Shown: positions 7,181 to 29,807 of the stretch, piece by piece
Numbering within the stretch: position 1 is the first letter of the stretch
How the letters are laid out: every line of letters begins with the position of its first letter
Source: a virus
Lineage: Duplodnaviria > Caudoviricetes
DNA: 64,000 nucleotides
IMG/VR virus record: IMGVR_UViG_3300029305_005484
Direction: 5' to 3' (one strand)
Made by a program: the position numbers and the translations under genes
Notes under the pieces: model-generated
Databases searched by the model: none
Told to the model about the DNA's origin: nothing
Seen by the model: only the letters and a program-made list of their open reading frames with translations

Positions 7181-7767
7181 TGACAATTTATCTATTTTAT
7201 TTTAAAGATAATGATGACAATAGAGAGTTAGAACCTTATCTATATGCATATACTACAAGTAAATTATTAGCAAATAGATTTATGGATTTTAGAGATATGG
7301 ATAAATTCAAACTTGTTAAGAGAGAAATTAGTGATAAAAATTACAGTGATTTCTCAAGGCAATATCCAACTCAACAATTGACAACAACTAGATTTTTAAC
7401 AAAACCAGATAAAGATACAATAGGAAAATCGTATGTGGAAATTGTATGTACATGGGATGAAGAAAAGAATTCTATTATAAATAGTGATGATACAGTATTC
7501 ACTATGTTTAGAGATAAGATGTTTAATCCAAGATACTTGTCACTAGACTTAAAAATTGATTTATGTAAATTAGGATTCTTTACAATATACCAATATTTAT
7601 ATCAACAAATGTACATATATGAACCTCTATCAGATCCTGAATTTTCTGGTGTGTTTAATCCTGATATAATTGCAGGTGATACAATGAGACCACTTCCACA
7701 TAATCTCAAGACAGACCAGTTTGAGATGTTCATGTATTTGTATAATGGTACTATAAAAGAAAAATAA
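7177..7767 (+). CDS. hypothetical protein
   Basis: 196 aa, ATGA overlap with the previous gene. Confidence 0.75.
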   Translation: MMTIYLFYFKDNDDNRELEPYLYAYTTSKLLANRFMDFRDMDKFKLVKREISDKNYSDFSRQYPTQQLTTTRFLTKPDKDTIGKSYVEIVCTWDEEKNSIINSDDTVFTMFRDKMFNPRYLSLDLKIDLCKLGFFTIYQYLYQQMYIYEPLSDPEFSGVFNPDIIAGDTMRPLPHNLKTDQFEMFMYLYNGTIKEK

Positions 7768-7800
7768 AGAATGATGTTAATTCATCATTCTTTATTTTTT
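7761..7800. terminator. bidirectional terminator
   Basis: AAAATAAAGAATGATG...CATCATTCTTTATTTT between converging units. Confidence 0.8.
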
Positions 7801-7816
7801 ATATATTTAATAAAAG

Positions 7817-8203
7817 TTATTCAGTTCTTTCCCAGATATATACTGCTTTATATGGAGGCATATTATTATGTGGTTGATTTCCTCCTGTACCTGTTGAATA
7901 TTCGACATTATCAACTGCTTTATTTGAATTCGCTGTCCAAGAACCACCTGTTTCAGCTGATATCCAGTTCACACCCCAGTTCATTGTAAGAGCATGATTA
8001 TGAAGAGGCATTTCATTTACAGTTAATGTATGACTTGCTTCACCACCAATACTATTAACATCATAAGAGCCACCAGCACCAAGTAAAAATCTATCATCAA
8101 TTCTTATCCAAGTTATACCACCATATTCTTCAATAACCTTTTCCATAGTATCTAATGTTGTAGAGTGTATAACCATACCAACATGTGATCGGTTGCAGTT
8201 TTG
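7817..8203 (-). other. cassette 1: start-less T4 gp10 C-terminal-like tail/baseplate module
   Basis: Frame opens inside the repeat (TAA CAA AAC TGC AAC CGA TCA CAT GTT GGT ATG); HVGMVIHST..YGGITW..RFLLGAG..GGEASHTLTVNEMPLHNH..HNNMPPYKAVYIWERTE matches the YPVGSIY..GGTW..HNNLPPY..VY.W.R pattern; domain similarity begins before the Met at 8176, which has no RBS. Confidence 0.8.
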
Positions 8204-8274
8204 TTAAGTAAGTTTTCTGTAATCAAAGGAAATTACCGATAACTAGAGAAATTTAACTTAACAAAATTGGTTCC
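8191..8274 (-). repeat. 84-bp hairpin repeat, copy 1
   Basis: GGTTGCAGTTTTGTTAAGT...ACTTAACAAAATTGGTTCC; inverted arms TTTTGTTAAGT/ACTTAACAAAA. Confidence 0.97.
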
Positions 8275-8292
8275 CCAATAATTTTAATTATA

Positions 8293-8565
8293 TTAAGAAT
8301 CTATCTTTCCTTGTATTAGAATAAATTCTGCAGGATCATTAGAATTCCATACACTATCAAAATGTAAAACATATACTTCTTTTGTTTCATTAGTATGTTC
8401 TCTAGTTATACCTCTACATATCCAATGTGCATTAGAATAGCATATTGCAGCTAATAATGCATAACCATCTCTAATAGTTTGATATACATAATTTGCTCCA
8501 ATACCATCTAAAGTTACTTTATCTATATAAAATCTTTCTTGATTAGTTTGTTGGTTGCAGTTTTG
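8293..8565 (-). other. cassette 2: start-less coding module of about 90 aa
   Basis: Hand translation QNCNQQTNQERFYIDKVTLDGIGANYVYQTIRDGYALLAAICYSNAHWICRGITREHTNETKEVYVLHFDSVWNSNDPAEFILIQGKIDS*; no Met; same phase relative to the repeat as cassette 1. Confidence 0.75.
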
Positions 8566-8636
8566 TTAAGTAAGATTTCTGTAATCTTCGTAAATTACCG
8601 ATAACTAGAGAAAGTTAACTTAACAAAATTGGTTCC
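8553..8636 (-). repeat. 84-bp hairpin repeat, copy 2
   Basis: 78/84 identical to copy 1 by manual alignment, no indels. Confidence 0.97.
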
Positions 8637-8660
8637 TCTTTGTCCATTCACCAAGAAGAG

Positions 8661-8698
8661 AAATAAAGAGAAGTGATGCAGACACTTCTCTTTATTTT
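8661..8698. terminator. intrinsic terminator hairpin
   Basis: AAATAAAGAGAAGTG-N7-CACTTCTCTTTATTT. Confidence 0.8.
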
Positions 8699-8810
8699 CA
8701 CCATACATAAAAAATCTTTACTTTCAAAGGAGTCCAAATATGAAATCACAATCAAAACATGAATCCAAACTTGAAACGTTCTATTATATAAGATAATAGA
8801 TTAGTATTTT
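8661..8810 (-). ncRNA. candidate late small RNA
   Basis: AACA-TTGTAA-TA at 8821-8810 on the minus strand, terminator at 8698-8661, no convincing minus-strand ORF between. Confidence 0.35.
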
Positions 8811-8840
8811 ATTACAATGTTTATTACTAAAAATATTTAC

Positions 8841-8852
8841 GACAATATTTTA
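8841..8852 (+). promoter_or_regulatory. putative late promoter GACA-N6-TA
   Basis: GACAATATTTTA upstream of 8883. Confidence 0.55.
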
Positions 8853-8882
8853 ATTGAAACATGAAAGGTTGGTTATGTATAA

Positions 8883-9680
8883 ATGGCAACTAAAATGCGA
8901 AATAGAAGAAAAATACATTGCCAGTTTTGTGATACATATTTTTTAGATCCAGATGGATATGCTAAACACTTAGAAACAAAACATAAGGATTTTTTACCTG
9001 AAGGATTTTCAGGATGGAGATATTATTACTATCAAAAGACTGGTAAATTAAATGGAAAATGTGTCATTTGTGGACATGAAACTGAGTGGAATGAAACTAC
9101 TCATAAATATAATAGATTTTGTAACAATCCAAAATGTAAATGTAAATACAGAGAAGAATTCAAAAAAAGAATGATTGGAAAGTATGGTAAGGTTACATTA
9201 TTAAATGACCCAGAACAACAAAAGAAAATGCTTGCTAACAGAAGAATATCTGGAGAGCATATATGGAGTACAAATCCTAAAATTAAAATTCCATATACTG
9301 GAAGTTATGAAAGAGAATTCTTAGAATTTCTTGATTTGGATTTAAATTTCGACCCAGAAGATATTATTGCTCCATCACCTCATACATACTATTATGAATA
9401 CGAAGGTGCAAAACATTTTTATATTCCAGATTTCTTTATTCCATCTTTAGGTTTAGAAATAGAGATTAAAGATGGTGGTTCTAATCCTAATACGCATCAT
9501 AAAATTCAAGATGTTGATAAGGTCAAAGAACGATTAAAAGATGCAGTTATGAAATCAAATAAAAGTACATTTAGTTACTTAAAGATTGAAGATAAAAATC
9601 ATTTCAAATTTTTTCAATTTCTTTCTGTAGCTAAACAAAAATTTCAAAATGGTGAAGATACTAAAATCTTTATGCCATAG
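8883..9680 (+). CDS. Zn-finger plus PD-(D/E)XK (TnsA-like/head-completion-like) nuclease
   Basis: CxxC..HxxxxH, CxxC..CxxxxC, and YIPDFFIPSLGLEIEIK catalytic motif. Confidence 0.75.
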   Translation: MATKMRNRRKIHCQFCDTYFLDPDGYAKHLETKHKDFLPEGFSGWRYYYYQKTGKLNGKCVICGHETEWNETTHKYNRFCNNPKCKCKYREEFKKRMIGKYGKVTLLNDPEQQKKMLANRRISGEHIWSTNPKIKIPYTGSYEREFLEFLDLDLNFDPEDIIAPSPHTYYYEYEGAKHFYIPDFFIPSLGLEIEIKDGGSNPNTHHKIQDVDKVKERLKDAVMKSNKSTFSYLKIEDKNHFKFFQFLSVAKQKFQNGEDTKIFMP

Positions 9681-29361: not shown

Positions 29362-29736
29362 CTAACTATTTGAAATATATGTACAGTCATATGTAAATAA
29401 TACATACTTCTCCCCTATGTCAAGACCCAAAGATATAATATTATATGTTCTATCATAAGATACATGTGTAGGGTATACATCTCCTGTAGTTGTATCACAA
29501 ACAAGAAGTGTTCCAAATTGACTAGATAAATGAGTGTTAATTGGATGCCATGGTAATGCTAGAATAGATGTTCCTTTAGCTCTAGCTGATAACCAACCTC
29601 TAACTTTTACAGTACAAACTCTTCCATATTTATAGCAAACACTTTCCCCTATAGTACAATTCCATGCTGTACAATTTCCACTAACAACTTCTAAGTTTGG
29701 AATTTTTCCTTCTAATTCTTCTTGATTGCAGTTTTG
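29362..29736 (-). other. cassette 3: start-less tail-fibre tip-like module of about 124 aa
   Basis: Hand translation QNCNQEELEGKIPNLEVVSGNCTAWNCTIGESVCYKYGRVCTVKVRGWLSARAKGTSILALPWHPINTHLSSQFGTLLVCDTTTGDVYPTHVSYDRTYNIISLGLDIGEKYVLFTYDCTYISNS*; no Met; YKYGRVCTV and LPWHP resemble the Y-K-x-G-x-V-x-V...LP..RP pattern of fibre C-terminal heads. Confidence 0.78.
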
Positions 29737-29807
29737 TTAAGTAAGATTTCTGTAATCAAAGGAAATTATCGATAGATAGAGAAAGTTAACTTAACAAAAT
29801 TGGTTCA
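29724..29807 (-). repeat. 84-bp hairpin repeat, copy 3
   Basis: 77/84 identical to copy 1 by manual alignment, about 21 kb from copies 1 and 2. Confidence 0.97.

Follow-up and report, generated by a model that had tools for sequence, protein, structure and literature searches.

A repeated 84-bp element marks silent tail-fibre tips across a jumbo phage genome: a candidate double dif-like site for module exchange

Phages are known to diversify their receptor-binding tips by small local inversion switches, which give two to six variants, or by mutagenic retroelements. The invertases Gin, Cin and Min, from Mu, P1 and p15B respectively, are serine recombinases that act on 26-bp sites with an enhancer and invert one or a few adjacent segments. 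In integrons, the attC sites, whose canonical core order is RYYYAAC ... GTTRRRY, follow complete genes having their own start codons, and they form one array beside attI. The attachment site of the CTX phage is used by XerCD and, like attC, is recombined in a folded form through a single strand exchange. The R64 shufflon relies on the tyrosine invertase Rci and on asymmetric sfx sites composed of a conserved arm, a conserved spacer and a variable arm (PMC11852207). For the Rin shufflon from Bifidobacterium prophages, an XerD-like, armless tyrosine recombinase was predicted (PMC6109161), and a tail-fibre shufflon of the BV01-like type is also described (PMC13596623). The dif modules of Acinetobacter plasmids (pdif sites, XerC/XerD) are proposed to undergo two Xer events at sites with identical spacers, a scheme that was partly shown by PCR (PMC13141974). 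Full-text literature searches returned no account of a phage with silent fibre tips dispersed as a library, or with double sites such as those presented here.

The window, i.e., the whole stretch of 64,000 nucleotides analysed, is AT-rich (29% G+C) and encodes several RNA polymerase beta-type subunits, a GroEL-like chaperonin, a topoisomerase II/gyrase, an NAD ligase and a major head protein. Judged by this gene content, it is part of a jumbo phage; the source is a roughly 275-kb animal-gut phage. A tRNA search found no tRNA, and a blastn search with positions 7700-8900 gave no match in the GenBank phage collection.

Three copies of an 84-bp element are found on the minus strand of the window, at 8191-8274 (copy 1), 8553-8636 (copy 2) and 29724-29807 (copy 3). 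As stated in an earlier note on this DNA, copies 1 and 2 are direct repeats, 362 nt apart, that flank a cassette (cassette 2, see below); they are 93% identical over their 84 nt, and copy 3 lies 21 kb from them. The earlier note also described invariant arms around a variable interior, with differences in the loop and bulges and, outside these, at the Y position in CAAYC and at the outermost base in copy 3. The alignment of the three copies gives exactly this distribution, and the arm count and the folding scores support the description of the element as a whole. The 14-mer arm, searched with at most two mismatches, occurs eight times where 1.66 occurrences are expected, a number reached in none of 100 shuffles, and the six true arms are either exact or differ solely at one A/C position. 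Compared with shuffled sequences, the folding of copies 1, 2 and 3 reaches z-scores of -4.4, -5.0 and -2.0 on the minus strand and of -4.4, -4.2 and -3.0 on the plus strand.

Read on the minus strand, which is the informative one, the element is made of GGAACCAA, TTTTGTTAAGT, 46 nt, ACTTAACAAAA and CTGCAAYC. The left site comprises an outer G-run, the spacer AACCAA and the arm TTTTGTTAAGT; after a 46-nt filler, the right site comprises the arm ACTTAACAAAA and the spacer CTGCAA, followed by AAY C... In copy 1, the left half-site covers 8256-8274 (minus strand), with an 11-bp XerD-like arm at 8256-8266 and the spacer within 8267-8274. The right half-site of this copy covers 8191-8209 on the same strand, with its arm at 8199-8209 and its spacer at 8193-8198, and reads ..N C N in the frame of the cassette; it would be the crossover point with the fibre gene.

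Related DNA was found by scanning metagenome contigs for the two arms. Strain A corresponds to three contigs from one assembly (about 270 kb together), which are 92-94% identical to the window and carry 28 further copies of the element. Arms and spacers are invariant, the interior drifts and the sequence outside the spacers varies. The left spacer AACCAA is found in 30 of 30 distinct copies and also upstream of the block that carries the fibre gene; the right spacer is CTGCAA in 28 of these 30, as it is at the junction of the strain A fibre. Since the outer arms differ from one copy to another, being a loose G-run to the left and codons of the tip to the right, the copies are not canonical two-arm Xer sites. 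The interiors of the copies look homogenised within each genome, as with gene conversion, the copies being about 92% alike. In a run from bovine gut, the element is covered 22-34 times as deeply as its flanks, in keeping with about 30 copies per genome.

Public assemblies repeatedly stop inside the element (window 8553-8636; ends of contigs L049 and L050), which indicates that these repeats fragment the phage genome in metagenome assemblies. Joints across 8266-8551 in the assembled contigs of public runs were considered as evidence for excision or switching and rejected, their sides being short and derived from other copies. In IMG/VR, the exact two-arm pattern had no match and a looser one retrieved a single palindrome, which is unrelated. 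Palindromes from the metagenome scan that share merely the 11-nt arms with the element were likewise unrelated and were set aside. Among the palindromes seen, a G+C-rich one of 63 nt with the arms TTTTGTTAAGT ... ACTTAACAAAA, unrelated to the element, is conserved on eight contigs (L001, L002, L005, L010, L013, L019, L025 and L028), one of which is a viral contig from IMG/VR; this palindrome might be an Xer-type site as well.

The arm TTTTGTTAAGT agrees at 9 of 11 positions with the consensus of the XerD arm of dif, TTATGTTAAAT (PMC2731167), a level reached by 0.1% of the 11-mers of the window. Furthermore, an arm of 11 bp next to a spacer of 6 bp reproduces the layout of a dif site (arm 11, spacer 6, arm 11). 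Of the features of Xer/dif sites, the element therefore has the XerD-type arm and the uniform 6-bp spacer and lacks the conserved outer arm. Considering the sequence, it is rather probable that the element is a DNA recombination site, in which two back-to-back dif-like half-sites tag silent tips, and not an RNA signal.

The earlier note proposed to look for recombinases in the genome. The family scan of the window ORFs found none in the window, and the search succeeded in its relatives. Strain A encodes one tyrosine recombinase (L030:6153-7175; PF00589 at 2.5e-37), and a 78% identical homologue is encoded by a diverged lineage, E2, 7 kb from its own element. The strain A protein, of 341 aa, scores 242.6 bits with the XerA model, for a cut-off of 220, and the XerC and XerD models come next. 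Its best solved relative is a XerA-type protein, and its closest cellular relatives are Xer proteins from Clostridia (about 55% identity). It remains far below the cut-offs of the integron-integrase models (92.9 bits vs 265 for TIGR02249; 52.8 vs 435 for NF011946) and of the NCBIfam models of tyrosine-type DNA invertases (45.6 and 41.9 bits vs 222 and 221), and no Rci-specific model is found among its matches.

No serine recombinase is present in the families listed for the ORFs scanned from the window and the related strains. The complete list of 20 families (E up to 1e-3) obtained for the window ORFs scanned does not include the reverse transcriptase family RVT_1, nor do the first 25 of the 46 families obtained for the ORFs of related strains; the association that defines a diversity-generating retroelement, a reverse transcriptase with a pair of template and variable repeats, was not found. 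A distant relative from another diverged lineage, E3, carries an RVT_1 reverse-transcriptase gene (L037:9266-10414, plus strand) about 2 kb downstream of its fibre gene, which may belong to a diversity-generating retroelement working beside the cassette system. Other genes of the window are worth mentioning. One ORF matches HTH_Tnp_1, a transposase-type helix-turn-helix (8e-8), and at least one matches HNH_3 and NUMOD4, of the homing-endonuclease type. Beside copies 1 and 2 and their cassettes, which form a mini-array, a 265-aa endonuclease is encoded at 8883-9680 (plus strand); it matches phrog_15137 at 1e-59 and, weakly, DUF7487 and a Holliday-junction-resolvase PHROG. It was considered as the nuclease of the element and rejected, as it is single-copy and adjoins no other copy of the element in the sequences examined.

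The frames located behind the three copies share one phase on the minus strand, TAA CAA AAC TGC AAY Cnn, and extend over 125, 87 and 121 further codons. Cassette 1 (7817-8194, minus strand) is a tail-fibre tip of the Gp10_C-like type, open from the AAC of the element to a stop codon at 7817-7819, whose first ATG is internal, at 8176, 18 nt into the frame. It matches Gp10_C at 6e-9 as well as several tail-fibre PHROGs, and it is 74% identical to the tip found at the same place in a related strain. Cassette 2 (8293-8556, minus strand; 87 codons) and cassette 3 (29362-29727, minus strand; 121 codons) contain no ATG, GTG or TTG start. Cassette 2 has no family match, and a look-alike search gave nothing to go on; strain A is devoid of exactly this cassette and one copy of the element, a precise 362-bp difference. 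Cassette 3 resembles viral hypothetical proteins only. Its protein is 46% identical to that of the allele found at the same place in strain A (window 29362-29727 vs L017:145-525), between flanks that are 94% identical at the DNA level; this divergence would result from an allele replacement or from a strong diversifying pressure on the tip. The downstream end of the replaced segment is located in ordinary flanking DNA, where there is no site.

A terminator-like hairpin just upstream of copy 2 (8661-8697, minus strand) would shield the mini-array from read-through, and a two-way terminator-like hairpin follows cassette 1 (7759-7800). A scan for sigma-70-type promoter-like sites, the phage's own promoter types being outside its scope, revealed no excess of them. 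Elsewhere, a strain A copy (L006:4719-4801, minus strand) has TTCTAT as right spacer instead of CTGCAA and is followed by a 105-codon frame still in phase, then directly by a 337-aa gene of unknown function. Another strain A copy (L031:1816-1898, minus strand), with the spacer GTGCAA and a frame of 17 codons only, looks like a decayed cassette with a mutated spacer; the equivalent place in strain C (L040:1749-2120) holds an intact frame of 124 codons.

An element that is short, has inverted ends and is present in about 30 copies per genome could be a miniature transposable element (MITE), lying beside tips by chance or through a target preference. The earlier note mentioned this alternative, with target-site duplications and no relation to the reading frame. 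However, in 44 of 44 copies from the window and the related sequences examined, the frame behind is open in one and the same phase, and the element itself supplies its first codons. Furthermore, no duplication flanks the copies, which have a G-run upstream and tip codons downstream, and the right end tracks the fibre junction across lineages, as described below. A MITE is thus highly improbable, and a recombination site made of two half-sites accounts better for the data.

The fibre gene of strain A has 499 codons, a ribosome-binding site and an ATG. Its conserved part ends with ..QIDELNCN, and its DNA at the junction has 11 nt, AAACTGCAACC, in common with the right end of the element. The constant part belongs to no annotated PHROG family; it is called fibre because of its tips, of homologues that carry fibre repeats and of the neighbouring tail-tube gene. 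Comparison of the fibre alleles P0003-P0006 (P0004, P0005 and P0006 coming from the database) reveals 86-98% identity up to LNCN and unrelated sequences beyond. Three expressed tips match silent, element-linked cassettes of other strains, with 83%, 99% and 91% identity, and the fused fibre-tip genes are contiguous in DNA contigs from several samples. Since tips expressed in some strains occur as silent cassettes in others, their joining to the fibre is an event that affects DNA, and tips have been exchanged between strains at this level.

The earlier note had envisaged either a recombinase site or an RNA acceptor. The in-frame tip fusions in genomic DNA, the three tips silent elsewhere and the presence or absence of the 362-bp segment all speak for the former. 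If the element were an RNA acceptor, cassette RNA would be attached to a fibre transcript at a 3' splice or trans-splice site, whose end would be either a terminal G of the group-I kind or an AY of the group-II kind; start-less frames in a fixed phase and a stable RNA fold agree with this. However, trans-splicing is unnecessary because the fused gene already exists as DNA. Rfam at gathering thresholds reveals no ribozyme, intron or other RNA family in all 64 kb, in accordance with the remark of the earlier note that the element contains no ribozyme core. In 18 aligned copies from the window's own lineage (E1), G-U pairs show no bias towards the strand that would be transcribed (24 sense-strand-only vs 56 antisense-strand-only). 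Moreover, the mini-array is flanked by terminator-like hairpins and displays no excess of promoter-like sites of the sigma-70 type. An RNA acceptor is therefore barely credible, and the DNA recombination site is retained in what follows.

Homologues of the element were identified in lineages E2 (on L046 and L044, the latter being the helicase homologue examined for a reciprocal swap at the place that the fibre block occupies in strain A) and E3 (three times in tandem on L036). Overall, the constant part of their fibres shares about 54-55% identity with its strain A counterpart. The five E2 and E3 elements are all exactly 83 nt long and align without gap; they form near-perfect inverted repeats of 32 nt, in whose interior changes are compensated. 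Their right end follows the junction of their own fibre (TAAATAGTAA, encoding L/I-N-S-N/K), so that arm and junction vary together. Start-less frames lie behind all five, with a stop codon just before the junction codons in both E2 copies. In E2, the left site is also present upstream of the fibre gene, and a silent tip is homologous to an expressed one from the exact junction onward (60% over 64 residues).

Across lineages, three arm pairs have changed on both sides. The covariation score is 0.112 vs 0.072 in shuffles, a value reached by 0 of 500 and higher than that of every slid control, and it rests on few independent events since there are only three lineages. The covariation that the earlier note proposed to test appears once E2 and E3 are added, whereas none was found for the hairpin within E1 alone and no strand-specific support came from G-U pairs. 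The symmetry of the inverted repeat is selected, yet a folded RNA is not implied because G-U pairs favour neither strand. As this symmetry is kept, covariation does not separate a folded strand from two symmetric arms bound by a protein.

This leads to consider the palindrome as a site that recombines as a hairpin, a cruciform or a folded single-stranded DNA, with a single strand exchange as for attC or CTX. The good folding of both strands, the near-perfect 32-nt inverted repeats with compensated changes in E2 and E3 and the Xer-family enzyme of a related strain are in line with this view. However, much of the pairing has disappeared from the interior of E1 elements while the copies persist, and no compensation is seen. 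If folded, the arms would pair with each other, leaving no second arm beside either spacer, and the fibre block, whose left arm is 1.3 kb from its right spacer, could not fold in this way. The likeness to integrons seen in the earlier note does not go deep: the core is reversed, as the note itself had remarked (both strands read GTTAAGT...ACTTAAC), start-less frames lie 3' of the element, the cassettes do not sit together and the recombinase does not reach the integron-integrase cut-off. A folded site is thus quite improbable, and two half-sites recombined as double-stranded DNA are preferred.

The fibre block, of 1313 bp, begins with the left arm GGAACCAATTTTGTTAAGT, continues through the upstream region and the constant coding part and ends at the right spacer. 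Three strains have it with 96-98% identity, at three genome places with different surroundings, and in all three the homology starts exactly at the left arm and stops exactly at the right spacer. Bounded in this way, the block looks like an element whose 46-bp interior has been replaced by a promoter and a gene. The sequence it has in common with the element is limited to 19 nt at the left end and 11 nt at the right one, and the right arm of the fibre gene matches that of the element at 6 of 11 positions. The block holds a match to the AR9-type late promoter, AACA-N6-TA (PMC5449584). This match and a hairpin after it are conserved upstream of fibre genes across lineages (L029:1600-1742, minus strand; L042; L036). 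Together with the Clostridia-like Xer gene, it hints at a Bacillota host and an AR9-like phage. Large rearrangements between strains have elements at their ends. No clean reciprocal swap, in which flanks that enclose an element in one strain would enclose the fibre block in another, was found among the strains compared.

General homologous recombination on repeats is a serious rival, although we regard it as unlikely. The elements would then be portable homology, and homologous recombination or repair of breaks at the palindrome would shuffle the tips without any dedicated recombinase. The 84-bp copies, about 92% alike and with interiors that look homogenised within each genome, would be suitable substrates. 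Large inter-strain rearrangements end at elements, the cassette-3 replacement ends downstream in ordinary flank without a site, and the window encodes no recombinase. In contrast, the fibre block has just 19 and 11 nt in common with the element, yet homology breaks exactly there in three strains. Furthermore, the interior drifts while arms and spacers stay invariant, the arms co-vary across lineages within a length fixed at 83 nt, and the arm resembles an Xer binding arm.

The exchange at dif-like half-sites, which we prefer, would proceed as follows. In each half-site, an invariant 11-bp XerD-type arm (TTTTGTTAAGT) would face inward, with a 6-bp spacer and then a variable arm on its outer side. 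As the right spacer lies inside the N-C-N codons that end the constant part of the only tail-fibre gene of the phage, a crossover there would join a start-less tip in frame. Before the exchange, the in-frame TAA of the arm and the flanking terminators would keep the tip silent. The fibre block, promoter plus constant part, would be a loaded module, since it is bounded by a left site and a right spacer, and the 46-bp interior of the element would be an empty one. Swapping these modules would take two successive exchanges, one between left sites and one between right sites, and would bring the fibre block in front of another tip, at any distance and in any orientation. This two-exchange model assigns no role to the 46 bp that separate the arms, nor to the conservation of the total length. 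The likely enzyme would be the phage's own Xer-family tyrosine recombinase, whose gene is seen in strain A and E2 and not in the window. The anatomy of the sites, the exchange of tips between strains at the DNA level, the breakpoints at both half-sites and the co-variation of arms and fibre junction across lineages are observed, whereas we infer the site-specificity of the exchange, the Xer-like catalysis and the order of events. More tentatively, a jumbo phage could have turned the Xer/dif machinery of chromosome resolution into a genome-wide docking system, in which about 30 empty 46-bp modules, bounded by heterospecific dif-like sites, mark the silent tips, and a loaded module of late promoter and constant part hops from one dock to another by paired exchanges; the gene would thus move to the cassette and not the reverse, each hop creating a new in-frame fibre within a 6-bp spacer.

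If this is true, about 30 unrelated tips would be addressed via one compact double site across the whole genome of a jumbo phage, and the potential host range of these gut phages could be predicted directly from sequence. If the mechanism holds, Xer/dif module exchange would reach beyond Acinetobacter plasmids, to the engineering of a protein within its reading frame, and would provide a natural two-site tool for cassette exchange with a defined 6-bp in-frame joint. It would also help to account for the breakage of such phage genomes at these repeats during assembly.

Like attC sites and their integrase IntI, the system combines an imperfect palindrome, variable inside and conserved at its ends, with promoter-less cassettes, site-cassette-site arrays and a recombinase related to Xer. 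It differs from integrons by the reversed core order, by the position of the element, 5' of start-less frames to which it supplies the first codons, by the dispersion of the cassettes and by the recombinase score (92.9 vs 265 bits). As with Gin, Cin and Min, the C-termini of tail fibres would be switched by site-specific DNA recombination, whereas no serine recombinase is seen among the families listed for the ORFs scanned.

The R64 shufflon is closer, with a constant gene, many alternative C-terminal segments, asymmetric sites and a tyrosine recombinase. The constant 5' part and the start-less 3' parts behind repeats that define shufflons are both found here, and clustered segments with inversion are not. 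Indeed, R64 has a compact cluster beside its invertase and uses inversion only, whereas about 30 cassettes are distributed here in both orientations over about 270 kb. Moreover, the sites are paired back to back, the constant block changes place and the enzyme scores as Xer-type and not as a known invertase. In the same way, the Rin and BV01-like shufflons are phage-encoded, vary the C-terminus of a receptor-binding protein and have a short repeat upstream of each variable segment. However, they gather 3-5 segments with single 10-11-bp sites at one locus next to the recombinase, in temperate phages, unlike the genome-wide library, with 84-bp double sites, of a jumbo phage that encodes RNA polymerase subunits.

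The dif modules of Acinetobacter plasmids share with the present elements the 11-bp arm and 6-bp spacer, a XerD-type arm of the TTATGTTAAAT kind, bounding sites in inverse orientation, partner sites with common spacers, a proposed replacement by two exchanges and the existence of empty modules. They rely on the XerC and XerD of the host, where the phage has a single Xer-like gene of its own, and their outer, XerC-side arm is conserved, which is not the case here. In addition, the empty module is fixed here at 46 bp. The cargo of dif modules consists of resistance or toxin-antitoxin genes, whereas that of the phage is a promoter with the constant part of a fibre, and one of the two crossovers would take place inside a reading frame and thereby build a protein.
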